Shown piece by piece: positions 2 to 27,771 of a stretch of 35,651 nucleotides of DNA (position 1 is its first letter; each line of letters opens with the position of its first letter). The stretch is from a virus (lineage: Duplodnaviria > Heunggongvirae > Uroviricota > Caudoviricetes): the IMG/VR virus record IMGVR_UViG_2654587746_000005; one strand, given 5' to 3'. Position numbers and translations under genes: made by a program. The notes beneath the pieces are model-generated. The model had not been told where the DNA came from. It saw nothing but the letters and a program-made list of their open reading frames with translations, and ran no database searches.

Positions 2-1297
2 TTAATTTTTCATTGCTTCGTTATGGGGCATGGTTGGGGCAAACTCGCTTAACTGTGTATTTAACAAAGCTACCTGTGCATTATTGTTTTCAGACATCCA
101 TTTTCCGTATACCTGAAATACCATTTGCGCATCTGCATGGCCCATCTGGTTTGCTATAAATGCCGGGTTAGCACCAGCTGTCAGCGACCAGCAGGCATAA
201 GTATGTCTCGACTGATATGATTTTCGATGGCGGAGTCCGGCACGTTTTATCGCTGCGTCCCACATCTGCCTTATTGAGTCAACGGTAAAATGGTCACCAT
301 AATTTTTTACTCTCGCTGACACTTCAGGTTGAAAAACAAAGGTGCATTTATGTTTTTCTGTTCTGCCATACTCTCTGAGGTGAACATCAATGATATGCTC
401 TTTGCTCAGTCTCGTTAATGTCATCTGACTCCGGAGAGCGTCGATTGCTGGCTTAATAAGATGAATGACCCGATTGGTTCCCGCCTGTGTTTTTGGGACC
501 GTGAAACGGTCTTTTGCTAAATTTCTCCTGATCATCATTGTTCCATTTTTCAGATCTATGTCCTCCCATCCAAGTGCACACAGCTCACCAGGGCGAACGC
601 CAGTATAAACAGAAACACACCATAAATTTTTGGCTTGCTGATTTCTGCACGCATCGATAAGACGGATGAATTCCTCCCGCGAAAGAGGATCCGGAATGGT
701 TCTTGATTCCTTTAATGGCGAGATCCCCTTAAACGGGTTATCTGCCAGGTAACCGTTATCAACACCAAACTGGAACACGGCGTTAAGATTTGTCATGTAA
801 TTATTTACAGTTACAGCCGATCTCCCTGGTTGTGTAACAATATAGTTACTTTTGGGGATCTGGTATCCAGTCAGTAGCTCTTTACGAACCTCCAGTAATT
901 TTTCTTTATTAATCGATGAGGCAAGATTTTTTTCACCGATTATGCTCAGGATATTTTTGATGACGGCACGGTATGTGTTGAGTGATGTTTTTGCGACTTC
1001 AGTTTCTTTCAGTGCCAGAAATTTTTCAGCCAGTTCTTTTATGGTTAAATCTTGTCGGGCCTCACCAAATTTTTCCAGATTGCGTGAGGAGGGAAACTGT
1101 TTTGCATAGTCGAAAACACCAGTTTTTATTGCGTAACAAACAGAGGCGCGTAGCTCACCTGCAACGCGCCTGTTTTTTGCTGTGTCAGGAACCCCCAGGT
1201 TTTCCCTGACTCTTACGCCTTTATAAACAAACCAGATACGTAATTTCCCTCCATGGTTTTCCACGCCTGTCGGATATTTCATTTCAACTTCTCTCAT
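2..1297 (-). CDS. int: Phage tyrosine integrase (site-specific recombinase)
   Basis: 431-aa ORF with stop at 2..4. C-terminal catalytic region has the R...H-x-x-R...Y pattern (e.g. HTYACWSL, ...VFQVYGKWM). It sits at the prophage end next to an excisionase-like gene. Confidence 0.9.
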   Translation of the reverse strand: MREVEMKYPTGVENHGGKLRIWFVYKGVRVRENLGVPDTAKNRRVAGELRASVCYAIKTGVFDYAKQFPSSRNLEKFGEARQDLTIKELAEKFLALKETEVAKTSLNTYRAVIKNILSIIGEKNLASSINKEKLLEVRKELLTGYQIPKSNYIVTQPGRSAVTVNNYMTNLNAVFQFGVDNGYLADNPFKGISPLKESRTIPDPLSREEFIRLIDACRNQQAKNLWCVSVYTGVRPGELCALGWEDIDLKNGTMMIRRNLAKDRFTVPKTQAGTNRVIHLIKPAIDALRSQMTLTRLSKEHIIDVHLREYGRTEKHKCTFVFQPEVSARVKNYGDHFTVDSIRQMWDAAIKRAGLRHRKSYQSRHTYACWSLTAGANPAFIANQMGHADAQMVFQVYGKWMSENNNAQVALLNTQLSEFAPTMPHNEAMKN

Positions 1298-1316: not shown

Positions 1317-1568
1317 TCAAGTAAGATGACGTCTTGGTCTTGCTGATGCCTGGCGCTCAATCCAGCGATCAATTTCTTCCAGGTTGTAAAAGCATGGACT
1401 GTTATCCCATGGCATACCGTCATGAGCGACATGCTTATATTCCCTTCCTTCCATAAACGATTTTTCCCGGGCCTTTTTTAACGTACCTTTTTTTATTCCT
1501 TTCAGCGCAATTAACTGCTCTTCGGATACCCATTTGCCGGGAGAGACAATCATGATTACTTCGCTCAT
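1317..1568 (-). CDS. xis: Excisionase-like small DNA-binding protein
   Basis: 83-aa ORF immediately upstream of int on the same strand. Size and position fit a lambdoid Xis; the family assignment is from recall only. Confidence 0.55.
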   Translation of the reverse strand: MSEVIMIVSPGKWVSEEQLIALKGIKKGTLKKAREKSFMEGREYKHVAHDGMPWDNSPCFYNLEEIDRWIERQASARPRRHLT

Positions 1569-1640: not shown

Positions 1641-4112
1641 TTAAGAATCAGCCTGACTCGGGATCAGTTTTTGCCAGATAGCTGAAACGTATTTTGCCTG
1701 GTAACGGGCGTCATCAAGTGCATTATGGCGCTCACCTTCGAATGGAATAGCCGTTCTGGCATCGAAGTCTATGGCTTTCCCCAGCTCAACGATTGTGCGT
1801 ACATCGCGATCGTTGTAGTAACGCCACGGGCAGGGGATCCCCTGCCGTTCGTATGAACGGCGCAAAATCGTGTTGTCGAAGTTGGCTCCATTTCCCCAGA
1901 CATGAACAAAAAATTCACCGGAGTTTTCGTCGATAAATTCCCGCAATTGTAACAGTGCATCATCTAACGGGATTTCATCGGTCATAATGGCAGATTGCGC
2001 TTCGCGTGATTGTTTAAGCCACCATTTAATGGTGTCCCGATCAATGACTCCGCCAGCAGTTTCCAGATCGATAGTCTTACTAAATTCCGGTCCCATATCT
2101 CCGGTTTGCGGATCGAAAAATATTGCACCTATTGAGATAATCGGGGCATCGGGATTTTTTCCCATGGTTTCAAGGTCGATCATTAGATGGTCACACGTCC
2201 TGCTGGTGGATGTGATTTCGTGATGACCGTTCACCTTAATTGAGTGATCTGCCGTCTCGCCAGTTTCATTATCGCTATTGTGATGCTGATTGCCGCCAGT
2301 GTTCTCCTTGTGTGGATGTTCAGCGCCTTCCATTTCCTCCGGATCATCTTCCTGAACTTCAACCTGATACTCTTCATCGAATGTTTCTTGGTATGTTGTG
2401 TCGCCCATCACCGCGCCACAATCAGGGCAGTTGCCGCCGCCGGTCTGACCGCAGGCGGTGCAGACTTTTTCCACTTCCTGTTGCGCCACTGGTTCAGGCT
2501 GTTTCGTTTCTGGCTCGTTTTGTAACGCATTTGTGCTGTTTTGTTCCGCTTTTTGGTAGTTCCGTTCCGATTCATGCTGGTTCTGGTTCACAGAATCGCG
2601 GGTCTGGATCCCCTTAACCCATTTCGGATCATTCGGGTCACTAATCCCTTCAACAAATTCACCACGTGATGCAGCAAGCAACTTATCGGCGTCAGGCTGG
2701 CTGATATTGGCTGCCTGCATAATTTTGTTTACTTCGTCAGCGGTAACTTTTATCGGCTCTGGTTGTTCTGAATCTTCAGCGGTATCTACATTTTGCGGTA
2801 AGCCCGTGTATGTGCCATTTTTTCGGGCAAAATATTCTTCTTTTGTGATTTCAGTGGCGCCAGCAGCCAGTGCCTTATCCAGACCAGAAAGTTTGTTTGT
2901 GCGACCGTATTTTTCTCCGTCCTTATCTGCGAAGAGGAAATAGAACGGCCCCTCACGCTCTACAGATGGTTCAGCTTCCGGCGCGGTTTCATTTTTTGGG
3001 ATATCAGATACCTCAGTTTCCACTGCATCAGTTTGTGTTTCTGATGACTGGAGAACATCAACAGTGCCCAGGTCTGTTTCTTCATTCTCAAACACGCCCT
3101 TTGTCGTCAGGTATTCGCAGATATATTTGTTCAGTGCTATGGGATCTTTGTGAATGTCGATCGGACGCTCACGGACAAGGCCAAAAATAGTCTGGCGGTC
3201 GTAGCGAAGGGCATCAGGCTGTTTGCGCATTGATGCCGAGATACGCTTCCAGTCTTCGCGGTCGTTGTCGATAACTTCTTTTTTTGCCCAGCGATGGATG
3301 CTGCCGTCAATGTTTCCGGCATCCACATCACCAGGCCAGAGAGCGTAGGCCAGTTCGTCATCCAGTGTTTTCCATGTCTGCTTGTATTCGCGATGAATGG
3401 CAGCAATGACCGGGCTGATTTTTCCTGTTGAATTTTCAGTGTACTGTTGATTGGCTCTGGCGCGGGCGAGATCAACAACAGACGTGTATTTTCCGGTTTC
3501 CTTGCGTTCACCTTCGCGACGTTTTTTCCAGATGCGCATCTCTGCCTGAATTTCGGGCCATTTAGCACCAGGAATACATTTATGCTTAACCCACCCAATG
3601 GCGTGCAACTTAAGCTCCGGATACATGGCGTTAACTTCTGGCATTTTCATCAACGCTTCAACGATATGTCCGTCGAATGTTGCCATGTCTTCCTGCAACA
3701 ATTCCTGTGCGCTAATAACCATATCAACGGTGATGTTTTCACATGTGTCGAACTTAACCATGACAGCGTTCTGTACTTCAGGGGCCAGCTTGTCAAAAGT
3801 GACGTTCATCGGATCGGATTCAGTCTCAACCGGGACAAAAGAAGCAGACTCCTCATCCCAGCGGTTTTCCTGCATATATTCAGCATCCCATGAATCGAGG
3901 GCAGGGCGGGGTATGCCAGGTTTATCCTCGCAGACAATAAATTTATAAGCGCAGTCCTGAGCAGCCGGATAATGTTCCAGGAACTGCCAGTGAAATTTTG
4001 CTCGAGCACGGCGTTCGTCGCCAGCTTCAATGGCTGTGGCTACAGCCACAGCGCCTTCTTCCCTTGTTGCCAGTTCGTCAGGAATAGCGGCGCAAATAAA
4101 GACTTTACTCAT
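1641..4112 (-). CDS. RecE-family (exodeoxyribonuclease VIII-like) protein with C-terminal DnaQ-like DEDDh 3'-5' exonuclease domain
   Basis: 823-aa ORF. The central segment DKLLAASRGEFVEGISDPNDPKWVKGIQTRD matches recalled RecE sequence. A zinc-ribbon CxxC...CxxC (CTACGQ...CPDCG) is present. The C-terminus carries DEDDh motifs (MIDLET, WGNGANFD, HNALDDA). Confidence 0.8.
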   Translation of the reverse strand: MSKVFICAAIPDELATREEGAVAVATAIEAGDERRARAKFHWQFLEHYPAAQDCAYKFIVCEDKPGIPRPALDSWDAEYMQENRWDEESASFVPVETESDPMNVTFDKLAPEVQNAVMVKFDTCENITVDMVISAQELLQEDMATFDGHIVEALMKMPEVNAMYPELKLHAIGWVKHKCIPGAKWPEIQAEMRIWKKRREGERKETGKYTSVVDLARARANQQYTENSTGKISPVIAAIHREYKQTWKTLDDELAYALWPGDVDAGNIDGSIHRWAKKEVIDNDREDWKRISASMRKQPDALRYDRQTIFGLVRERPIDIHKDPIALNKYICEYLTTKGVFENEETDLGTVDVLQSSETQTDAVETEVSDIPKNETAPEAEPSVEREGPFYFLFADKDGEKYGRTNKLSGLDKALAAGATEITKEEYFARKNGTYTGLPQNVDTAEDSEQPEPIKVTADEVNKIMQAANISQPDADKLLAASRGEFVEGISDPNDPKWVKGIQTRDSVNQNQHESERNYQKAEQNSTNALQNEPETKQPEPVAQQEVEKVCTACGQTGGGNCPDCGAVMGDTTYQETFDEEYQVEVQEDDPEEMEGAEHPHKENTGGNQHHNSDNETGETADHSIKVNGHHEITSTSRTCDHLMIDLETMGKNPDAPIISIGAIFFDPQTGDMGPEFSKTIDLETAGGVIDRDTIKWWLKQSREAQSAIMTDEIPLDDALLQLREFIDENSGEFFVHVWGNGANFDNTILRRSYERQGIPCPWRYYNDRDVRTIVELGKAIDFDARTAIPFEGERHNALDDARYQAKYVSAIWQKLIPSQADS

Positions 4113-4205: not shown

Positions 4206-4397
4206 TTAAAGACCTGCCGGGATTTCGATATTATCCTGGTGAATAACTTTATCGACCGGGTAACAGTTACCGGGAATTTTCTGTTCGGTTGCTGCTGTCA
4301 TACACTCCTGCATTGTCCTGTGAACACTGACTGCAATATCAACTGGCTCTCCGGAAACAAGAAAAACTGTCAGAACAAGCGCAAATGCTGAATTCAT
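4206..4397 (-). CDS. ydfD: YdfD-like small membrane/lysis protein (63 aa)
   Basis: Internal ATG gives 63 aa (MNSAFALVLTVFLVSG...) with an N-terminal hydrophobic helix. Its start overlaps the dicB stop, as in the Qin dicB-ydfD arrangement. Confidence 0.55.
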   Translation of the reverse strand: MNSAFALVLTVFLVSGEPVDIAVSVHRTMQECMTAATEQKIPGNCYPVDKVIHQDNIEIPAGL

Positions 4398-4582
4398 TGT
4401 GCACATCCTTTTGGCATCAGACGTAAACGAGCCAGCATTGAAACAATGCATATTTTATTTAATAGCTCCCGTTCTTGTTTTCTCTTGTTAATGGCATCTT
4501 CAGTAAATACAGGGTTACTGATAGTGACACCAATTTCAAAACAACCTTCAGACGTATTAACGTTTGGTAATAACGTTTTCAT
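4394..4582 (-). CDS. dicB: Cell division inhibitor DicB (62 aa)
   Basis: Translation from the internal ATG gives MKTLLPNVNTSEGCFEIGVTISNPVFTEDAINKRKQERELLNKICIVSMLARLRLMPKGCAQ, which matches recalled E. coli DicB. It lies directly downstream of a DicF-like sRNA. Confidence 0.75.
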   Translation of the reverse strand: MKTLLPNVNTSEGCFEIGVTISNPVFTEDAINKRKQERELLNKICIVSMLARLRLMPKGCAQ

Positions 4583-4751
4583 TATCGCGTCCTCAACAAT
4601 GAATTTTGTGATGCAGTGCCTGGTGCCTCCAGGTGACGTTAACCAGTTAACAATTAACGCCGGATACAGAGAATCCACCCATAACACTGTTTTTGGTTTT
4701 AACTGTTCCGCGTGCGCTTAGCCGCATTCACCGCATCACAAAATTCACTTT

Positions 4752-4808
4752 AAAAACGGCGGCAGAGCAGTCACGGAGTAAAACTGATACCGCCAAACGT
4801 CACTAACA
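4752..4808 (-). ncRNA. dicF: DicF small regulatory RNA with intrinsic terminator
   Basis: Minus-strand sequence GTGACGTTTGGCGGTATCAGTTTTACTCCGTGACTGCTCTGCCGCCGTTTTT matches recalled DicF (ftsZ-targeting sRNA). A GGCGG...CCGCC stem is followed by a T-run. It sits between the ydfA-like gene and dicB, as in Qin. Confidence 0.75.
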
Positions 4809-8570: not shown

Positions 8571-8800
8571 GTACATCGGCTACCATTCTCGACATGTGCT
8601 GTGGCAGTCGCATGCTCTGGTTCGATAAGAATGACGAATGGTCGATATTTAGCGATATCAGGAAAGAGGAACATTCGCTATGTGATGGACGTCACCCGAT
8701 TATTAATCCCGACATTATCGCTGATTTTCGTGCGCTGCCGTGGTTGTCTGCTTTGCATCAAAAGCAGACATTACCAGATTTAGACATCTGTTTCCGATAG
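8567..8800 (+). CDS. Short ORF with SAM-methyltransferase motif-I-like N-terminus (ILDMCCGS...), possibly a truncated methyltransferase remnant
   Basis: About 77 codons from a GTG. It carries a hh-D-h-x-C-G-S glycine-loop-like signature but lacks the rest of an MTase fold. Weak call. Confidence 0.25.
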
Positions 8801-8832
8801 CCCGTTCTGATGCTACACTTTTTGCTATTTTC

Positions 8833-9519
8833 ATGAACCTCATAAACACATTTATGACTGTTGCTGATTTCAAACGCCCCAAATTGGAGCTCCCAAACGG
8901 GGCAAAAAAACTATTACTGCACTCTTGCTGTGCTCCATGTTCCGGTGAAGTGATGGAGGCGCTTCAGGCCTCGGGAATCGACTACACCATCTTTTTCTAC
9001 AACCCGAACATTCATCCTCAGAAAGAGTATTTAATTCGTAAGGATGAGAATATTCGCTTTGCTAAACAACACGGCGTGCCATTTATTGATGCTGATTACG
9101 ACACAGACAACTGGTTTGAGCGAGCCAAAGGAATGGAATGGGAGCCTGAACGAGGGATCCGTTGTACCATGTGTTTTGACATGCGTTTTGAGCGGACTGC
9201 GCTGTATGCCGCTGAAAATGGTTTCAGTGTGATCAGTAGCTCACTGGGCATTTCACGCTGGAAAAATATGCAGCAGGTTAACGACTGTGGACGGCGAGCC
9301 GTCGCGTATTATCCGGGCATGGTGTACTGGGATTATAACTGGCGAAAGCAGGGCGGCTCTTCCCGCATGATTGAAATCAGCAAGCGCGAACAATTCTATC
9401 AGCAGGAATATTGTGGCTGCGTGTATTCACTGCGCGATACCAATCTACACCGCAAATCTCAGGGACGCCCTCTAATCAAAATTGGTCAACTCCACTACGG
9501 TAAAGAAGGCCAGGAATGA
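8833..9519 (+). CDS. queH: QueH-like (DUF208) Fe-S protein, putative epoxyqueuosine reductase
   Basis: Conserved cysteine motifs are present: [15 protein letters not shown] and YCGC, in a protein of about 220 aa. The start is ambiguous (ATG 8833 or 8863). Confidence 0.7.
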
Positions 9520-9634: not shown

Positions 9635-10074
9635 CTTGTTGAAATTAGAGGAAATCTTGCAGCCATGATATGGCTTAAAATAACGTTTGATTATTTTACC
9701 TGCTGTTTGTCCCTGGTTTAAAGTCGGTTGTCTGATTTGATTACGCGCAACTGACGCTTACGTATTGAAGTAACGAGCACGAAGACACATATTTATCAGT
9801 GCCTGTATACGTCAAGAGCAGGAGATTTATGTGCTGGTTCTCAAATGCACGCTGGCTATTGTGGCTGTAATGGCAATTTATTGTCTTGTTATTGTTCTTA
9901 TGGATCACCTTTCTGATTGATTTCATATTGGAGAGGTAACGGTAGTTAAGTAGAATGGCTGCGGGTGCTTGAGGCTATCTGCCTCGGGCATGAACACCAA
10001 CGGCAGATAGAGAAAAGCCCCAGTTAACATTACGCGTCCTGCAAGACGCTTAACATTAATCTGAGGCCAATTTC

Positions 10075-10287
10075 ATGCTAGACACATGTAGGTTAGCCTC
10101 TTACGTGCCGAAAGGCAAGGAGAAGCAGGCTATGAAGCAGCAAAAGGCGATGTTAATCGCCCTGATCGTCATCTGTTTAACCGTCATAGTGACGGCACTG
10201 GTAACGAGGAAAGACCTCTGCGAGGTACGAATCCGAACCGGCCAGACGGAGGTCGCTGTCTTCACAGCTTACGAACCTGAGGAGTAA
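10075..10287 (+). CDS. mok: Mok-like in-frame leader ORF of the hok locus
   Basis: 70-aa ORF that is an in-frame N-terminal extension of hok, as recalled for chromosomal mokC/hokC. Confidence 0.55.
   Translation: MLDTCRLASYVPKGKEKQAMKQQKAMLIALIVICLTVIVTALVTRKDLCEVRIRTGQTEVAVFTAYEPEE
10132..10287 (+). CDS. hok: Hok/Gef-family type I toxin (51 aa)
   Basis: MKQQKAMLIALIVICLTVIVTALVTRKDLCEVRIRTGQTEVAVFTAYEPEE matches recalled HokD/RelF. It is followed by an intrinsic terminator. Confidence 0.85.
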   Translation: MKQQKAMLIALIVICLTVIVTALVTRKDLCEVRIRTGQTEVAVFTAYEPEE

Positions 10288-11101: not shown

Positions 11102-12151
11102 GTGCGGGTATTACTTCGACCTGTTCTGGTACCGGAACTTGGGCTGGTGGTCGTTAAGCCGGGCCGTGAATCCATGCCGGTATTCCACAATACCCGGGTA
11201 CTGGTGGAGCCGGAACCGAAAAGCATGCGTAATCTGCCGTCCGGGGTCGTTCCTGCCGTTCGCCAGCCGCTGGTGGAAGACAAAACATTGCTGCCGTTTT
11301 TCAGTAACGCACGGGTAATTCGTGCTGCTGGTGGTGCTGGTGCATTGTCTGACTGGCTGTTGCGCCATATTAAATCCTGCCAGTGGCCACACGGCGATTA
11401 TCATCACAGCGAAACCGTTATTCACCGATATGGTACCGGCGCAATGGTGTTGTGCTGGCACTGCGACAACCAGCTGCGTGACCAGACATCCGAATCACTC
11501 GAGCAACTTGCTCATCAAAACCTGTCAGCATGGATGATTGACGTCATCGGTCACGCAATAAGCGGTACGCAGGAGCGTGAATTATCTCTGGCTGAATTAT
11601 CCTGGTGGGCGGTCCGCAATCAGCTGGCGGACGCGCTACCGGAAGCGGTATTACGTCGCTCGCTGGGATTACCAGCGGAAAAAATCTGCTCGGTGTACCG
11701 CGAAAGCGACATCGTACCGGGAGAGCAGACCGCCACCAGCATATTGAAACAGCGCACAAAAAATCTTGCACCGTTGCCTCACGCCCACCAGCAACAAAAC
11801 CCATCACAGGAAAAGACGGTGGTAAGCATCACCGTTGATCCAGAGTCTCCGGAATCTTTCATGAAGCTGCCTAAACGTCACCGGTGGGTTAAGGAGAAAT
11901 ACACACGCTGGGTTAAGACACAGCCGTGTGCTTGCTGCGGTATGCCAGCCGACGATCCGCATCATCTGATTGGTCACGGGCAGGGCGGAATGGGAACCAA
12001 AGCACATGATCTCTTTGTTTTGCCTTTGTGCAGAAAGCATCACGACGAGTTGCATACGGATACCGTGGCATTTGAAGAGAAGTATGGCTCCCAACTGGAG
12101 CTGATTTTTCGATTTATCGATCGCGCGCTGGCAATTGGTGTGCTGGCCTAA
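11102..12151 (+). CDS. YdfU-like DUF968 protein with HNH-like Cys/His motif
   Basis: 349-aa ORF (GTG start) in the pre-Q position. The C-terminal motif [14 protein letters not shown]...CRKHHDELH is typical of the DUF968/YdfU family in lambdoid prophages. Confidence 0.7.
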
Positions 12152-12701: not shown

Positions 12702-13226
12702 TTATTGTTTAACCCATAATAGTTCATTGACATTGAATCCCAACTTTTGAGCGGTACGCACATAGTCTGCTTTTACATTATCTGGAATAGTTTGGGTCCT
12801 TGCCAGAATCCATAGGTATTCTCTGTTCGGACCACTGACAAGAGCATACTTATACTCATCATCCAGTTTGATTACATTATAGCCACCATAGAAGGGGCCA
12901 AAAAACGAAACTTTCAACGCTGCAGTTTTAGTATCTCCAGTAAAGTATGCTTTACCTTCGCTCTCGCTCCATTTGTTTTTCGTTGGATCGTATCCACGGT
13001 TAAGTACGCGAATCCCTCCGTCGTTCCGTTTTTCATAAGTAGCGCTGACCTGTTCCAGACCACGTTCGAACCAGTTCTCGAGGCGAGCTATTTCATACCA
13101 TTTTCCGAGGTAGCGGTTGGCGTCAAAATTTGTAATCGGCTGCACACCTTTAGGTGGTGTCGGGGCCTTACATGCTATAAGAGTGAAAGAGAGTGCAATG
13201 CCAGTCAACACAGGCCATAACTTCAT
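12702..13226 (-). CDS. Blc-like outer-membrane lipocalin lipoprotein
   Basis: 174 aa with a signal peptide and lipobox (LIAC). Lipocalin motifs NFDANRYLGKWYEIAR and KVSFFGPFYGGYNVI closely resemble recalled E. coli Blc. The gene is on the opposite strand to the late operon. Confidence 0.8.
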   Translation of the reverse strand: MKLWPVLTGIALSFTLIACKAPTPPKGVQPITNFDANRYLGKWYEIARLENWFERGLEQVSATYEKRNDGGIRVLNRGYDPTKNKWSESEGKAYFTGDTKTAALKVSFFGPFYGGYNVIKLDDEYKYALVSGPNREYLWILARTQTIPDNVKADYVRTAQKLGFNVNELLWVKQ

Positions 13227-13418: not shown

Positions 13419-14378
13419 ATGATAAAAAAACCTGTGATTGGGATCAGCGGTTGTTTGGGCGGTTCTGCTGTTCGTTTTGATGGTGGTCACAAAAGAGATG
13501 ACTTTTTAATGGACAAATTAGTGGAATGGGTAACATTCAGACCAGTATGTCCGGAAATGGCTATAGGGCTGCCAGTTCCGCGTCCTGCTCTACGACTTGT
13601 GCGCTCGAAGCAAGGAAATATACGGATGTGTTTCAGCCACGACCAGAATGAGGATGTGACAGAGAGAATGACAGAGTTTAGTCGTTCTTATATGGACAAA
13701 TTAAAGGATGTATCGGGGTTTGTGGTTTGTGCTAAATCTCCCAGCTGTGGCATGGAGCGCGTGCGTGTCTATGATGAAAATGGTAATCGAGGTCGTAAAG
13801 ATGGAGTGGGACTATTTACGAGCACTTTGATGGAAAAGTTTTCCTGGCTACCGGTTGAAGAGGATGGGCGATTACATGATCCAGTGCTTCGTGAGAATTT
13901 TATTGAAAGAGTTTTTGCTTTGCATGAGCTCAATCACCTTTACAAGGAGAAATTATCAAGAAGAGAGTTATTAGCTTTTCATAGTCGTTATAAGCTTCAG
14001 TTGTTGGCGCATAGCCAGGCAGGCTATAAAGATATGGGACCATTTGTGGCTGCAATACACGAGTGGGCGGACCTTGAATCATACTTTGAGGTGTATCGTG
14101 ATAATCTGATGGCGATTCTCAGAAAACCAGCATCACGTAAAAATCACACGAATGTGCTGATGCATATACAGGGGTATTTTAGTAATTACTTAAGTACACG
14201 CCAGCGTAAAGAGTTGAGCGAGGTTATACTTAACTATCGCTTTGGCACATTGCCTCTTCTTGCGCCGTTGACTCTGCTGAAGCATTATCTGGGTGAGTAT
14301 CCTAATGATTACTTGCTTACACAGAACTACTTCGATCCCTATCCGGAAGAACTGGCTCTAAGACTGATGGTGAATTAA
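13419..14378 (+). CDS. Two-domain protein: N-terminal DUF523/TudS-like [4Fe-4S] domain fused to C-terminal DUF1722/YbgA-like domain
   Basis: TudS-type motifs are present: GISGCLGG, PVCPEMAIGLP and AKSPSCGM (three Cys plus Glu/Ser). The C-terminal half resembles YbgA. RBS AGGGGGAGG is upstream. Confidence 0.7.
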   Translation: MIKKPVIGISGCLGGSAVRFDGGHKRDDFLMDKLVEWVTFRPVCPEMAIGLPVPRPALRLVRSKQGNIRMCFSHDQNEDVTERMTEFSRSYMDKLKDVSGFVVCAKSPSCGMERVRVYDENGNRGRKDGVGLFTSTLMEKFSWLPVEEDGRLHDPVLRENFIERVFALHELNHLYKEKLSRRELLAFHSRYKLQLLAHSQAGYKDMGPFVAAIHEWADLESYFEVYRDNLMAILRKPASRKNHTNVLMHIQGYFSNYLSTRQRKELSEVILNYRFGTLPLLAPLTLLKHYLGEYPNDYLLTQNYFDPYPEELALRLMVN

Positions 14379-14784
14379 CTGTATGCGATATCATCTGAAA
14401 GTGATGAGTTCCTGTATGCAGGATATTTACAATCGTAAAAACTACGCTATGATGCTCATAGTGTCAGTTTTTATAAAAATCCTGTTCACGCTAAAGAAGA
14501 CATTGAGATGCAATTTAATGTTGGTAAACATACCAGCCCCAAAAGATTTTATTCAATCTGTTTTTATATGAAGATATTTCAAGTGAATATTAAGAGCATA
14601 TAATATTATTATTGCACGCAGCTATTATAATATAACAGATTAGTTTAATGATTTGTTTTTTGTGAGTTAAACACATGGTTTTATAGTTGTGATGCAATGA
14701 GATTTTCCTTATTGTTGAACTGGCGAATATTGATTTTCCACCTATACTTACCTGGTGTAACCCCAATGATATCAGGTGGATAAT

Positions 14785-15498
14785 ATGCCATACATATGTT
14801 CTATCATTTTGGTGTTGAACTCGTTTGGTGTCCGAATTGGTAAAGAAGATATTTTGTTTAAAAAAGGAAATGCTGTCCTCATTGAATACAATTTAAAAGA
14901 TCTTTTTTCGTCAAATACAGATCATCTAATGATCGTAGATGTTGAGGAGAAAACAGTTAATGATTTCTTTAAAAACTACACACTCTCACCTTTTTCTGTA
15001 AGAAGGTTTTATCCGTCATACTTGATAGTAGAATGTGAAGATTTTTCATTGTTAAAGAACTTGGTTGCATGCTTGAATTGTGATAGCAAAACCGTGGATG
15101 TAGTTAGAAATCAAATATCACTTGCATGTCTTGCTGTCTTATCTTCAGAGAAAATAGTGCAAAGTTTTTTGTTCGGAAGTCTTAATAGCTTAGGTTGTAA
15201 AGTTAAGGCTATTATTCACTCGGATATCTCTGCGTCATGGAGACTTTGTGATATATCTTCAAGATTATATATGAGCGAGAGTTTGTTAAAAAGAAAATTA
15301 AAAGACGAAGGATTATCGTTTAGTAAATTAATTCTTGAAGAACGAATGATGATGGCGCAAAGATTATTGATCTACAGTAACCATACTGTCGGCAAGGTGG
15401 CGGGAATATGCGGGTATGACAATGCATCATATTTTGTAAGTGTTTTTAGAGGATATTTTGGTGTGCCTCCGCACCAATATTTATCAAGATTTTCTTAG
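14785..15498 (+). CDS. AraC/XylS-family transcriptional regulator (AppY-like)
   Basis: Very AT-rich gene. The C-terminus has the AraC double HTH (…SESLLKRKLKDEGLSFSKL…GYDNASYFVSVFRGYFGVPPHQY). The N-terminus and overall layout resemble recalled prophage regulator AppY. Confidence 0.8.
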   Translation: MPYICSIILVLNSFGVRIGKEDILFKKGNAVLIEYNLKDLFSSNTDHLMIVDVEEKTVNDFFKNYTLSPFSVRRFYPSYLIVECEDFSLLKNLVACLNCDSKTVDVVRNQISLACLAVLSSEKIVQSFLFGSLNSLGCKVKAIIHSDISASWRLCDISSRLYMSESLLKRKLKDEGLSFSKLILEERMMMAQRLLIYSNHTVGKVAGICGYDNASYFVSVFRGYFGVPPHQYLSRFS

Positions 15499-17244: not shown

Positions 17245-17607
17245 ATTAATATTAAATCGGATTATTTTTAGCGCTGAATGTGAAATTTAAATAAAAAGGA
17301 CTCTTCCATGAGTCAAAATCCTTGAAATCTTAAGGGTAAGATAAAAGGTCATTAGACAGAATGACACGTTTTATTAATAAATAAAGCTATTGTTTCATTC
17401 GTGTGTTTTTCTTTACAAAAGTAATCCTTGCTATGGTTGGTTAATCATGCGTTAATGGTGTTCTGGTTTGTTACAAAATTATCTGAAGCAGTCATTGTTA
17501 TAATTTTATTATTTGTACCTCTTGAGATTTCCTTGTTGGTTTTTCTCTCTGATATTTTTTTTCGGACCATTCTGCCCAAGGGCTAACTTCTTCAAAAGGT
17601 AATAATG

Positions 17608-17820
17608 ATGTCTAACAAAATGACTGGTTTAGTGAAATGGTTTAACCCTGAAAAAGGTTTTGGTTTCATCACGCCGAAAGATGGTAGCAAAGATGTGTTT
17701 GTGCATTTCTCAGCTATTCAGAGCAACGATTTCAAAACGTTAACTGAGAATCAGGAAGTCGAATTTGGTATTGAGAACGGACCTAAAGGCCCTGCAGCTG
17801 TTCATGTAGTGGCACTTTGA
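17608..17820 (+). CDS. CspA-family cold-shock protein
   Basis: [23 protein letters not shown]...VHF... shows canonical RNP1/RNP2 cold-shock domain motifs. A long AT-rich 5' leader lies upstream. Confidence 0.9.
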
Positions 17821-18023
17821 GGTAGAAAATATTACAAACCATATTCACTTTAGATGCCCGTGTTGCCATGGTTCTCAGTATAGAACATCATCTTTTGATG
17901 TTTCTGACAGAAATCCTTTCGGGGCAAAATGTATCTTTTGTAAATCAATGATGATTACATTTGATAATATTTCACAATACTTAAATGTTAGCCATCTGTC
18001 GTTAGATTTAAGAAAGTGAAAAT

Positions 18024-24291: not shown

Positions 24292-25799
24292 TGGCAATTC
24301 TTGATGATGTGATTGGCGTTTTTTCACCAGGATGGAAAGCGGCAAGGCTGCGTTCCCGAGCGGTGATCCAGGCTTATGAGGCCGTAAAAACGACGCGGAC
24401 ACACAAAGCCCGACGGGAGAACCGAACTGCCGACCAGTTAAGCCAGTACGGGGCCGTGTCGTTACGTGAGCAGGCCCGTTACCTTGATAACAACCACGAT
24501 CTGGTCATTGGTGTATTTGACAAGCTGGAAGAACGGGTGGTGGGGAAAAATGGGATTATTGTCGAGCCACATCCGGTATTACGCAATGGTGCCATTGCCC
24601 GTGACCTGGCAGCGGAGATACGTACCCGATGGAGTGAATGGTCTGTCAGTCCGGAAGTCACCGGGCAGTTTACCCGTCCGATGCTGGAACGTCTGATGCT
24701 GCGTACCTGGCTGCGCGATGGTGAGGTGTTTGCCCAGATGGTTTCCGGGCGCATAAACAGCCTGACGCCTTCTGCCGGTGTTCATTTCTGGCTGGAGGCG
24801 CTCGAGCCGGACTTTATTCCCATGACCAGTGATGAGAGCAACAGGCTGAATCAGGGCGTGTTTGTTGATGACTGGGGGCGTCCCGAAAAATATCTGGTGT
24901 ATAAAAGTCGTCCTGTATCCAGACGGCAGATGGAAACCAAAGAAGTGGATGCAGAGCGAATGCTGCATCTTAAATTTGTTCGCCGTCTGCACCAGATGCG
25001 CGGGACGTCTTTATTGTCCGGTGTGCTGATCCGCCTCAGCGCCCTGAAAGAGTATGAAGATTCTGAGCTGACTGCAGCAAGGATCGCCGCTGCTCTGGGG
25101 ATGTACATCCGGAAAGGCGACGGACAGAGCTATGAAACGGATGGTAATGACAGCAAGGAGAACGAACGCGAGCTTACCATTCAGCCAGGCATTATTTACG
25201 ACGATCTGAAACCCGGCGAAGAAATCGGAATGGTGAAGTCGGATCGTCCCAATCCTAACCTTGAAACTTTTCGTAATGGTCAGTTGCGTGCCGTGGCGGC
25301 GGGCAGTCGTCTGAGTTTTTCCAGTACGGCACGCAACTATAACGGCACTTACAGCGCCCAGCGTCAGGAACTGGTTGAGTCTACTGATGGCTACCTGATC
25401 CTGCAGGACTGGTTTATTGGTGCCGTCACCCGCCCGATGTATCGTGCCTGGCTGAAACAGGCTGTGGCATCCGGTGTTATCAGGCTACCCCGCGATCTTG
25501 ACCGTTCTTCACTGTATACCGCGGTGTATTCCGGACCAGTGATGCCGTGGATTGACCCTGTTAAGGAGGCTGAGGCCTGGAAAATCCAGATTCGTGGTGG
25601 AGCGGCGACAGAATCAGACTGGGTACGTGCTGGTGGTCGTAATCCGGATGATGTCAAACGTCGGCGCAAGGCCGAAATTGATGAAAACCGCAAGCTGGAT
25701 CTGGTATTTGATACCGATCCGGCCAGTGATAAAGGAGGCAGCAGTGCCGCAACGAAACGACAGGAGCCGCAGCACACCGACGACCAGTCCGAAGAATAA
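24291..25799 (+). CDS. B: Portal protein (lambda gpB-like)
   Basis: 502-aa ORF in the lambda gene order, with size and position typical of a portal. Confidence 0.85.
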   Translation: MAILDDVIGVFSPGWKAARLRSRAVIQAYEAVKTTRTHKARRENRTADQLSQYGAVSLREQARYLDNNHDLVIGVFDKLEERVVGKNGIIVEPHPVLRNGAIARDLAAEIRTRWSEWSVSPEVTGQFTRPMLERLMLRTWLRDGEVFAQMVSGRINSLTPSAGVHFWLEALEPDFIPMTSDESNRLNQGVFVDDWGRPEKYLVYKSRPVSRRQMETKEVDAERMLHLKFVRRLHQMRGTSLLSGVLIRLSALKEYEDSELTAARIAAALGMYIRKGDGQSYETDGNDSKENERELTIQPGIIYDDLKPGEEIGMVKSDRPNPNLETFRNGQLRAVAAGSRLSFSSTARNYNGTYSAQRQELVESTDGYLILQDWFIGAVTRPMYRAWLKQAVASGVIRLPRDLDRSSLYTAVYSGPVMPWIDPVKEAEAWKIQIRGGAATESDWVRAGGRNPDDVKRRRKAEIDENRKLDLVFDTDPASDKGGSSAATKRQEPQHTDDQSEE

Positions 25800-25812
25800 T
25801 TCCTGGTTCAGG

Positions 25813-27771
25813 ATGCAGGCTGGTCACCAGAGTGACGCGGATATTTATATTTATGACGAGATTGGTTTCTGGGGTGTTACAGCGAAGCAGTTTATCAGTG
25901 ATCTGAATGCACTGGGCGATATCACCCACATTAATCTCCATATTAATTCACCGGGTGGCGATGTCTTTGAAGGCATCGCCATTTTTAATGCGCTGAAAAC
26001 ACATGGTGCGTCCATTACCGTTTATGTCGACGGTGTGGCGGCGTCAATGGCGTCGGTCATTGCGATGGTGGGAAACCCGGTCATTATGCCGGAAAACACT
26101 TTCATGATGATTCATAAACCATTTGGCTTTACGGGCGGTGATGCGGAGGACATGCGCACCTATGCCGACCTGCTCGATAAAGTTGAGGCGGTTCTGTTAC
26201 CCGCTTATGCACAGAAAACCGGGAAAACCACCGATGAAATTGCTGCCATGCTGGCGGATGAGACCTGGATGTCCGGTGCCGAATGTCTGGCACATGGATT
26301 TGCTGATCAGGTAACGCCAGCCGTTAAGGCAATGGCATGTATTCAGTCAAAACGTACAGAGGAATTTAAAAAGATGCCGGAATCCATTCGAAACATGATT
26401 ACTCCGCCACGCAACAGTGCTCCACGCGTACAGGATGATGAACCTGCAGCCTCCCGGACGCCAGTGCAGGCAGCCGCACCCGTGGTGGATGAAAACAGTA
26501 TCCGTGCGCAGGTACTGGCAGAGCAAAAAGCGCGTGTAAACGGTATTAATGATCTGTTTGCCATGTTTGGCGGGCGTTATCAGACGCTGCAGGCTCAGTG
26601 TCTTGCCGATCCTGAATGTTCGCTGGAGCAGGCCCGCGAAAAGCTGTTGAACGAGATGGGGCGCGAGTCCACGCCATCCAATAAAAATACCCCGGCTCAT
26701 ATTTATGCCGGTAACGGTAATTTTGTGGGGGACGGGATCCGCCAGGCGCTGATGGCGCGTGCCGGATTTGAAAAAACCGAACGTGATAATGTCTACAACG
26801 GGATGACCCTGCGTGAATATGCCCGTATGTCACTGACTGAACGGGGTATTGGGGTTTCCAGTTATAACCCGATGCAGATGGTCGGTGCGGCGTTCACACA
26901 CAGTACGTCTGACTTCGGTAATATTCTGCTGGATGTTGCGAACAAAGCCATTCTGCAGGGCTGGGAAGATGCTCCTGAAACCTATGAACAGTGGACGCGG
27001 AAAGGTCAGTTGTCTGATTTTAAAATTGCCCATCGTGTGGGTATGGGGGGCTTCAGTGCTCTGCGTCAGGTGCGTGAAGGGGCGGAATATAAATACGTCA
27101 CCACCGGAGATAAACAGGCCACTATTGCACTGGCGACCTATGGCGAGCTGTTCAGTATCACCCGTCAGGCCATTATCAATGATGATCTGAATATGCTGAC
27201 CGATGTCCCGATGAAGCTGGGCCGTGCGGCGAAATCCACCATTGCCGATCTGGTTTATGCCATTCTGACGTCTAACCCGAAAATCTCCACAGATAATGTA
27301 AGTCTGTTCGATAAAGCGAAACATGCAAACGTACTGGAGAGCGCTGCAATGGACGTGGCATCGCTGGATAAAGCCCGCCAGTTGATGCGCGTTCAGAAAG
27401 AGGGGGAGCGTCATCTGAATATTCGTCCTGCGTTCGTACTGGTACCGACGGCGATGGAGTCTGTTGCTAACCAGGTCATTCGCTCCTCAAGTGTCAAGGG
27501 GGCTGACATTAACGCCGGTATTATTAACCCGGTGAAAGATTTTGCGACCGTTATTGCAGAGCCTCGTCTTGATGATAACAGCCAGACCACCTTCTACCTG
27601 GCTGCGTCCAAAGGCTCCGATACGATTGAAGTGGCTTATCTCAACGGTGTGGATACGCCATATATTGATCAGATGGAGGGCTTCAGTGTGGATGGCGTGA
27701 CAACGAAAGTGCGTATTGACGCCGGTGTCGCGCCAGTTGATCACCGCGGTCTGGTGAAATGTACGGCGTAA
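25813..27771 (+). CDS. Fused prohead protease (ClpP/S49-like) - scaffold - HK97-fold major capsid protein
   Basis: The N-terminus has ClpP-like motifs (INSPGGDVFEG...GVAASMASVIAMVG), followed by a coiled-coil linker and a C-terminal capsid domain. This matches the Gifsy-2-type fused head gene (recalled). Confidence 0.85.
   Translation: MQAGHQSDADIYIYDEIGFWGVTAKQFISDLNALGDITHINLHINSPGGDVFEGIAIFNALKTHGASITVYVDGVAASMASVIAMVGNPVIMPENTFMMIHKPFGFTGGDAEDMRTYADLLDKVEAVLLPAYAQKTGKTTDEIAAMLADETWMSGAECLAHGFADQVTPAVKAMACIQSKRTEEFKKMPESIRNMITPPRNSAPRVQDDEPAASRTPVQAAAPVVDENSIRAQVLAEQKARVNGINDLFAMFGGRYQTLQAQCLADPECSLEQAREKLLNEMGRESTPSNKNTPAHIYAGNGNFVGDGIRQALMARAGFEKTERDNVYNGMTLREYARMSLTERGIGVSSYNPMQMVGAAFTHSTSDFGNILLDVANKAILQGWEDAPETYEQWTRKGQLSDFKIAHRVGMGGFSALRQVREGAEYKYVTTGDKQATIALATYGELFSITRQAIINDDLNMLTDVPMKLGRAAKSTIADLVYAILTSNPKISTDNVSLFDKAKHANVLESAAMDVASLDKARQLMRVQKEGERHLNIRPAFVLVPTAMESVANQVIRSSSVKGADINAGIINPVKDFATVIAEPRLDDNSQTTFYLAASKGSDTIEVAYLNGVDTPYIDQMEGFSVDGVTTKVRIDAGVAPVDHRGLVKCTA

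Follow-up and report, generated by a model that had tools for sequence, protein, structure and literature searches.

The left end of a lambdoid prophage raised the question of what enzyme is encoded by a gene that resembles recE over much of its length, ends in a different type of nuclease and is not followed by recT. The prophage is contained in a stretch of DNA of 35,651 nucleotides (nt) from a virus of the Caudoviricetes (IMG/VR record IMGVR_UViG_2654587746_000005), which was analysed as a whole and is called the window below. The gene is complete and lies on the minus strand at 1641..4112, as an uninterrupted ATG-initiated open reading frame (ORF) for a protein of 823 amino acids (aa), with a GAGG ribosome-binding site about 8 nt upstream. 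An initial annotation, made from the sequence alone, had described the product as a RecE-family protein with a DnaQ-like exonuclease domain and without a RecT-like annealase. Four points are new here. The whole non-catalytic part of the protein is a RecE-family scaffold, nucleases of predicted opposite polarity have been exchanged on it, recT is present or absent in strict accordance with this exchange, and the name exonuclease VIII is wrong for the protein. It was already known that the gene is ubiquitous, that it is annotated as a 3'-5' exonuclease, and that it is the intact form of a named pseudogene of Escherichia coli K-12; the class of lambdoid modules to which it belongs was catalogued in 2025.

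The C-terminal DEDDh exonuclease domain

Residues 640-823 (1644..2195, minus strand) were identified by Pfam, AlphaFold2 (AF2) and Foldseek as a DEDDh 3'-5' exonuclease domain of the Rv2179c-like / T4 DexA family. Pfam family PF16473 (Rv2179c-like 3'-5' exoribonuclease domain) matched residues 642-813 over profile positions 2-177 of 177 (E=4.3e-67), with a score of 225.7 bits against a gathering cutoff of 27, which places the domain in the DEDDh family; a weak match to the RNase_T family of Pfam was found beside it. All five catalytic residues are present, namely D646 and E648 (Exo I, DxE), D746 (Exo II, D), and H796 and D801 (Exo III, Hx4D). They were invariant in an alignment with T4 DexA, an EcD-like protein and standalone homologues, and invariant or at least 90% conserved among 20 aligned close homologues.

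The initial annotation had read the C-terminus as DEDDh/DnaQ-like and not as a PD-(D/E)XK nuclease, and had proposed a domain search and a structure prediction as checks. Both agreed with that reading. Besides the PF16473 match, an AF2 model of residues 631-823 was obtained from 54 homologues with a mean pLDDT of 88.9 and showed the DEDDh fold. Its best Foldseek match was T4 DexA (8KEL, E=2.8e-11, TM 0.74), followed in this order by RNase T, a DnaQ domain, REXO2/oligoribonuclease and Cap18, all of them DEDDh 3'-5' exonucleases; no PD-(D/E)XK protein was among the Foldseek matches of this model. In a profile search of PDB sequences, T4 DexA was the sole solved protein that was reached by sequence (E=7e-16), and Rv2179c was not retrieved. 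In sequence and in fold alike, every property tested thus makes the protein a member of the DEDDh / PF16473 family. The fold predicts a polarity opposite to the 5'-3' polarity of RecE.

Enterobacterial prophages often encode standalone proteins of 180-190 aa from this DEDDh clade. They start with MNHLMIDLET, and the fused domain starts with CDHLMIDLET. This likeness would be the pattern expected from an in-frame fusion of a whole standalone gene.

The RecE-type scaffold in residues 1-639

The part in front of the nuclease domain was compared with RecE of K-12. The claim that the central region is RecE-like was confirmed by BLASTP, which aligned residues 262-625 with RecE residues 278-591 (E=3e-61, 39% identity), with near-identity in residues 463-625. 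The alignment stops just short of the RecE nuclease domain, and RecE residues 592-866, which represent the PD-(D/E)XK nuclease (domain about 564/606-866), gave no BLASTP alignment to the 823-aa protein. The NCBIfam RecE equivalog NF007259 was matched by residues 246-625 on model positions 271-602 of 877, with 281 bits against a cutoff of 1269. The N-terminal part of the protein is of a different type from that of RecE, which is called YdfE-type below. When alignments of YdfE-type and RecE-type N-terminal regions were compared with hhalign, they were paired with a probability of 95.9% (E=5e-9, 186 columns), residues 14-203 corresponding to RecE 12-220. The two types are therefore remote homologues, and the whole non-catalytic part of 640 aa is a RecE-family scaffold. 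The designation "RecE-family protein" thus holds for the scaffold, and beyond the centre for its entire length of about 640 aa, but it does not extend to the enzyme as such: the RecE equivalog test failed, and the protein is not exonuclease VIII. A true RecE orthologue is ruled out by the catalytic domain, by the equivalog score and by the missing recT.

Four segments were distinguished within the scaffold. The N-terminal YdfE-type domain (residues 1-235; 3408..4112, minus strand) is the remote homologue of the RecE N-terminal domain PF06630 (Exonuc_VIII); residues 1-235 had no direct match in the local Pfam library, and PF27430 is given for close homologues of this region in a precomputed domain listing. 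It is followed by a conserved helical domain of about 110 aa, named mid1 (residues 236-345; 3078..3407, minus strand), which was recognised by BLASTP against RecE and in family representatives. It was found in 35 of 49 representative family proteins of at least 450 aa, two of them with an N-terminus identical to that of K-12 RecE. Residues 385-437 (2802..2960, minus strand) form a small beta-beta-alpha-beta-alpha domain with the motif GPFYFLF...GR(T/A)NK...EITKEEYFARKNGTY, which recurs in a subset of the family (representatives P0258, P0275 and P0345) and has no meaningful similarity to K-12 RecE in pairwise alignment. The fourth segment, residues 471-625 (2238..2702, minus strand; BLASTP), is near-identical to RecE and holds an acidic linker as well as the DKLLAASRGEFVEGISDPNDPKWVKG and CxxC-x7-CxxC motifs. 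The CxxC-x7-CxxC motif (C551, C554, C562 and C565; 2415..2462, minus strand) is zinc-ribbon-like and is common to RecE residues 517-532. At the DNA level, nt 1425-1867 of the gene are 78% identical to nt 1365-1765 of recE.

A full-length AF2 model calculated from 20 close homologues had a mean pLDDT of 41. It was usable at residues 385-437 only, the sole scaffold segment predicted with confidence (pLDDT about 80-85). Homologue searches for the scaffold yielded almost solely E. coli fragments of 72-100% identity, and when the scaffold alignment was searched as a profile against PDB sequences, all matches were at chance level (E of at least 0.07). For RecE itself, the function of the N-terminal region is not known and the nuclease domain alone is genetically sufficient, while the full-length protein raises linear-linear recombination (PMC11611040).

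Absence of an annealase and linkage of recT with the nuclease type

The initial annotation had named xis as the next gene and had seen no RecT-like gene after it, and both statements stood up to re-inspection. The excisionase gene (1317..1568, minus strand; PF06806, E=1.6e-31) lies directly downstream, where recT is located after a genuine recE, as in Rac and in phage 666R9. When tblastn and phmmer were run with K-12 RecT, a divergent RecT, lambda Bet and an Erf as queries, no RecT, Bet or Erf was detected in the window; with the same programs, queries for lambda Exo, Gam, a phage single-stranded DNA-binding protein (SSB) and Abc2 also remained without a match. The PGAP map of a 99.6% identical prophage names no recombinase or annealase. 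A PHROGs scan of the unnamed early ORFs revealed no annealase; it recognised a replication initiator resembling O, an activator resembling CII, a Ren-like protein, an HNH/DUF968 protein and members of families with no known function. Of the annealases, RecT/Redbeta and Erf were covered by homology search, and other families through the PGAP, PHROG and Pfam annotation. Within this scope no cognate annealase lies beside the nuclease, and the protein is not an exonuclease/annealase recombinase.

Related loci were collected in two sets. The close set was obtained with an alignment of seven mid1 sequences as query and comprised relatives of at least 97% identity; 73 of 80 viral-contig relatives had the full four-part architecture, and none of these 73 DEDDh loci had an annealase within 7 kb. 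The diverse set was seeded with the divergent representative P0365 (about 50% identity to P0365) and contained 57 loci with scaffold and DEDDh domain and 22 loci with scaffold and RecE nuclease. RecT, Bet or Erf was found in none of the 57 DEDDh loci, in which the next gene is an integrase gene or a small excisionase-like gene. All 22 RecE-nuclease loci had a RecT-family gene (PF03837, E=1e-35), and in 21 of them this gene came directly after the nuclease gene, with its start at -31 to +12 nt relative to the stop codon. Divergent RecT proteins were overlooked by BLASTP with K-12 RecT and were recovered by clustering of the downstream ORFs combined with Pfam.

Taken over both sets, an annealase accompanied 0 of 130 DEDDh loci (57 + 73) versus 22 of 22 RecE-nuclease loci. 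It follows from this pattern that recT and the RecE nuclease move together as a unit, with the DEDDh domain as an alternative for which RecT is dispensable. The two arrangements are exemplified by two phages, vB_EcoS-689R5 with the order dicB-ydfD-[RecE-N scaffold + DEDDh]-xis-int and no recT, and vB_EcoS-666R9 with the order racC-recE-recT.

Exchange of nuclease domains within the scaffold family

In an exhaustive HMMER search of 1.84 billion proteins with residues 1-640, only 245 clusters (50% identity) were retrieved, and the scaffold family is therefore small. Among its 49 long representatives (at least 450 aa), six had a DEDDh C-terminus, about a dozen had the RecE nuclease, and many had neither. 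The N-terminus in the family is either YdfE-type or RecE-type (PF06630), and each type was seen with each nuclease. An example of a mixed protein is representative P0249, in which an N-terminus identical to that of K-12 RecE is combined with a DEDDh domain 99% identical to that of the window protein. P0243 carries the RecE-type N-terminal domain plus most of the YdfE-type one, and P0252 and P0345 are further members that illustrate the combinations of N-terminal type and nuclease type, every one of which occurs. Many long members, of about 700-800 aa, lack a C-terminal domain recognisable by Pfam; of ten such proteins that were checked, nine had no Pfam match. The scaffold members without a nuclease domain probably correspond to the "RecE-2" proteins of PMC12315714.

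The RecET system is a workhorse of recombineering. In nature, its scaffold also occurs with an exonuclease of predicted opposite polarity, and then always without RecT. Since the scaffold occurs in this form, its job would be independent of RecT and of 5'-3' resection. It is conceivable, albeit rather doubtful, that the N-terminal 600 aa or so of RecE serve as a platform indifferent to the nuclease carried, and that the DEDDh version represents a distinct single-protein system for the processing of DNA ends. Such a protein would either cooperate with RecBCD-Chi recombination of the host or degrade competing DNA, rather than being a defective form of RecET. If the platform idea is true, the protein provides a natural means of finding the binding partners of the RecE scaffold. 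In practical terms the gain is modest: the family represents a clean natural experiment on the scaffold, and the protein is a candidate factor in the growth of Chi-rich lambdoid phages that depends on host RecBCD.

Comparison with known systems

With RecE of Rac (exonuclease VIII), the protein shares the homologous non-catalytic part of about 590-640 aa including mid1, the near-identical zinc-ribbon/acidic-linker segment, and a similar gene position in the leftward early operon shortly before xis-int. The two differ in the catalytic domain, which is PD-(D/E)XK (5'-3') in RecE and DEDDh (3'-5' family) in the 823-aa protein, in the recT partner, which follows recE and is absent after the 823-aa gene, and in the small domain at residues 385-437, which is additional to RecE.

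T4 DexA (exonuclease A, 8KEL) has the Pfam family, the fold and the five catalytic residues in common with the window protein at an identity of about 25-28%, and contains extra loops. DexA is a standalone protein of 227 aa from a virulent phage, whereas the window domain forms the end of an 823-aa scaffold protein of a temperate phage. The structure of DexA was solved in a study (PMC12153337, NAR 2025) that describes this enzyme in the scavenging of host DNA. The same study presents EcD of E. coli ("HREX") as an anti-T4 exonuclease specific for DNA with 5-hydroxymethylcytosine (5hmC), and plasmid-expressed EcD is reported to protect E. coli.

An EcD-like sequence was found in viral contigs through the 17-mer of the published forward primer; the 23-mer of the reverse primer had no exact match. 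The assignment to EcD rests on the MIDTET start, on Ala at position 78 and on a near-match to the reverse primer, and not on an accession. EcD belongs to the same family as the window domain, with 37% identity over the whole domain, and both are encoded by early genes of prophages. Encoded in a P2-like prophage, EcD stands alone with about 190 aa and has no counterpart of the 640-aa RecE-type scaffold. At the position equivalent to DexA D90, EcD has Ala78, whereas the window protein keeps Asp718. In the HREX signature of PMC12153337, loss of the D90 equivalent goes with a dimer-only state, and the equivalents of W152 and D169 are kept for the recognition of 5hmC. The window protein also departs from this signature in that W152 is replaced by Tyr766 and that D169 aligns with Ala780 in a gapped, uncertain part of the alignment. 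The EcD-like gene (L028, 5679-6269, minus strand; also present in L010, L015, L025, L026 and L031) is one of the early genes of a P2-like prophage. It is flanked by a DUF4761 gene on one side and by genes for a ParE-like toxin and a Dam methylase on the other, and a cox-like gene and an integrase gene lie upstream of it. From this setting EcD appears to be phage-borne and not a core bacterial gene.

Standalone DnaQ-like nucleases are also encoded in Rec modules of lambdoid phages such as epsilon34 and g341c, in P22-like phages as a separate gene beside the annealase gene. The product of g341c gene 29 is 56% identical to the window domain, and its gene lies between ssb and abc2, which encodes a RecBCD modifier (order erf-ssb-exo-abc2). 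Unlike these P22-like proteins, the window domain is joined to a RecE-type scaffold in one chain, and no annealase accompanies it. A survey of 314 lambdoid phages (PMC12315714, Genome Res 2025) also notes such genes near int, outside a recognisable Rec module. It further defines a class of four phages, named "Tritos", that encode a nuclease without an annealase, an SSB or an anti-RecBCD function and are rich in Chi sites. The window is likewise rich in Chi sites and lacks an annealase and a homologue of Gam or Abc2; on these features, taken irrespective of the nuclease type (RecE or DnaQ-like) that the authors assign to Tritos, it fits the nuclease-only class.

Identity and distribution of the gene

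The 823-aa protein belongs to PHROG 2082, with a match that spans residues 1-822 of 823. YdfE of K-12 is 100% identical to residues 1-256, and ydfE of K-12 is a pseudogene that is interrupted by IS2 right after residue 256. Because of this match, the gene is the undamaged form of ydfE. The listed 306-aa product of K-12 ydfE (L005, 5079-5999) consists of the 256 genuine residues and a tail read into IS2, and database entries for YdfE therefore describe the truncated N-terminal domain of an exonuclease.

The gene is among the most widespread prophage genes of E. coli. Of 5,426 complete E. coli genomes, 3,538 contained at least 80% of its length, at up to 10 places per genome, and it also occurs in isolated phages such as HannyBb, PhiR42_1, Tritos, mEp460 and the PPompW phages. 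At the DNA level, the copy in Tritos shares 98.9% identity with the window gene. PGAP names the protein "exonuclease", "3'-5' exonuclease" or "3'-5' exoribonuclease domain-containing protein", and many phage records label the gene as exodeoxyribonuclease VIII. The latter label is wrong for the 823-aa protein, as it implies the wrong chemistry and the wrong pathway, and a corrected annotation is now possible.

Proposed role

The gene is being maintained, as it is intact in the 3,538 genomes and its catalytic residues are conserved. Its product is proposed to be a stand-alone exonuclease for the processing of 3' DNA ends, encoded late in the early-left operon of a phage that relies on RecBCD and RecA of the host; even chances are given to this proposal. 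A 3'-5' polarity would be expected from the DEDDh family, and DNA would be the most likely substrate in view of DexA and EcD, the characterised proteins most closely related to the domain, and of the RecE-type scaffold. The gene is the last one before xis-int and lies downstream of dicB (cI/dicA - ... - DicF - dicB - ydfD - gene), a position that suggests expression during lytic growth or induction and not in the repressed lysogen. The enzyme presumably works alone and not as one half of an exonuclease/annealase pair. The g341c homologue between ssb and abc2 gives a hint that links the domain to a recombination module.

Chi octamers (GCTGGTGG) were counted 11 times in the window, versus 1.1 expected from shuffled sequences, and eight of them are on the plus strand, which is the strand of the late genes. 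Five are clustered within about 650 bp (11143-11792) inside ydfU (DUF968 / HNH-like); the others are at 2202, 16635, 18661, 22123, 22591 and 25629. As the phage is rich in Chi and has no annealase and no homologue of Gam or Abc2, it would leave recombination-dependent growth to RecBCD and RecA of the host. The scaffold-tethered exonuclease might then trim 3' tails at phage DNA ends or intermediates, and the trimmed ends could, for instance, become substrates on which RecBCD can load, although this last step is speculative.

Several points weigh against this proposal. Polarity, substrate and activity of the 823-aa protein are predictions from its sequence, and the blunting of ends for RecBCD is suggested by the gene context. 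An exoribonuclease gave the Pfam family its name, and the same term is sometimes used by PGAP. DnaQ-type 3'-5' exonucleases usually inhibit homologous recombination, as is noted in PMC12315714, the authors of which also term one- and two-gene Rec modules "somewhat suspect". For the scaffold, a function is not known even in RecE (PMC11611040). Roles in defence or in DNA degradation, as for EcD or DexA, also have to be reckoned with, at the low probabilities given below.

Alternative explanations

An anti-phage nuclease of the prophage, which like HREX/EcD degrades 5hmC-type DNA of superinfecting T-even phages and so shields the lysogen, is suggested by EcD itself, a member of the same Pfam family with 37% identity and the product of an early gene of a P2-like prophage, which is reported to digest T4 DNA and to protect E. 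coli when expressed from a plasmid (PMC12153337). Protection of a lysogen depends on expression in the lysogen, and this is doubtful because the gene is at the far end of a repressor-controlled leftward operon and no promoter-like site was found upstream on its own strand; a promoter and terminator scan around the gene gave nothing above chance. Moreover, no PADLOC match was obtained, the HREX signature is poor at the three positions compared above, and the 640-aa RecE-type scaffold is without a counterpart in EcD. This role is considered unlikely. About the same small probability is assigned to a function outside recombination, either DNA degradation for nucleotide scavenging and host takeover or an anti-defence activity on nucleic acids of host immunity. 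It finds some basis in T4 DexA, the nearest solved structure, which is described in host-DNA scavenging (PMC12153337), and in the operon that the gene shares with the host-directed dicB, DicF and ydfD. The RecE-type scaffold and the g341c homologue between ssb and abc2 point instead to a recombination module, and no evidence ties the protein to any defence system. Temperate lambdoid phages are not known to degrade host DNA, which speaks against scavenging.

An exoribonuclease that acts on 3' ends of phage or host RNA, as the Rv2179c-like name suggests, would agree with the name of PF16473, with the exoribonuclease designation sometimes given by PGAP, and with RNase T and oligoribonuclease among the structural neighbours. 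RNase T cuts DNA as well, however, and the profile search of PDB sequences led to T4 DexA, a DNase, and not to Rv2179c. As EcD and DexA act on DNA and the scaffold derives from a DNA recombination enzyme, an RNA substrate is regarded as less likely still than the two preceding roles. The idea of a decaying, functionless remnant of a RecE/RecT module has the lowest standing and is judged very improbable. It could be based on the pseudogene in K-12 and on the reservation about one- and two-gene Rec modules in PMC12315714. The full-length ORF is present, however, in 3,538 of the 5,426 genomes counted above and in the plaque-forming phages Tritos, HannyBb and mEp460, all five catalytic residues are conserved, and the architecture is kept in divergent lineages (about 50% identity across the diverse set). 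A pseudogene or remnant was thus rejected, as the gene is intact and conserved.

Prophage context and accessory genes

The window is an intact Qin-type lambdoid prophage, and a 99.6% identical copy adjoins rspB in many E. coli genomes. The order of genes is int, xis, the 823-aa gene, ydfD and dicB, followed by genes for a DicA-like repressor, Cro, a cII/YdaT-like protein and an O-like replication protein, a nin-like region, Q, lysis genes, and the terminase, head and tail genes. The integrase gene (2..1297, minus strand; Pfam Arm-DNA-bind_2 and Phage_integrase) marks the end of the prophage and is located by rspB in near-identical genomes. Upstream of the 823-aa gene and in the same leftward operon are ydfD (DUF1482), dicB and DicF (4206..4808, minus strand; Pfam and Rfam), the small RNA DicF being located at 4757-4808 on the minus strand (Rfam, 68.9 bits). 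The arrangement dicF-dicB-ydfD matches the gene order of K-12 Qin. A DUF1391 (YdfA-like) protein was also identified in the window by Pfam.

Two further RNA elements were identified by Rfam on the plus strand, the sok antitoxin RNA with hokD (9963-10137) and a cspA-type thermoregulator leader upstream of cspI (17450-17866). Together with DicF, they are typical cargo of Qin prophages. The nin/late-regulatory part contains accessory genes for QueH (epoxyqueuosine reductase), a YbgA / 2-thiouracil desulfurase-like protein, a lipocalin and an AraC-type regulator; this accessory-gene region covers 8740-9519, 13419-14378, 12702-13226 (minus strand) and 14776-15498. Among the head genes, the ORF at 25552-27771 is annotated in a near-identical genome as a ClpP-like prohead protease fused to the major capsid protein, an arrangement that resembles Gifsy-2.

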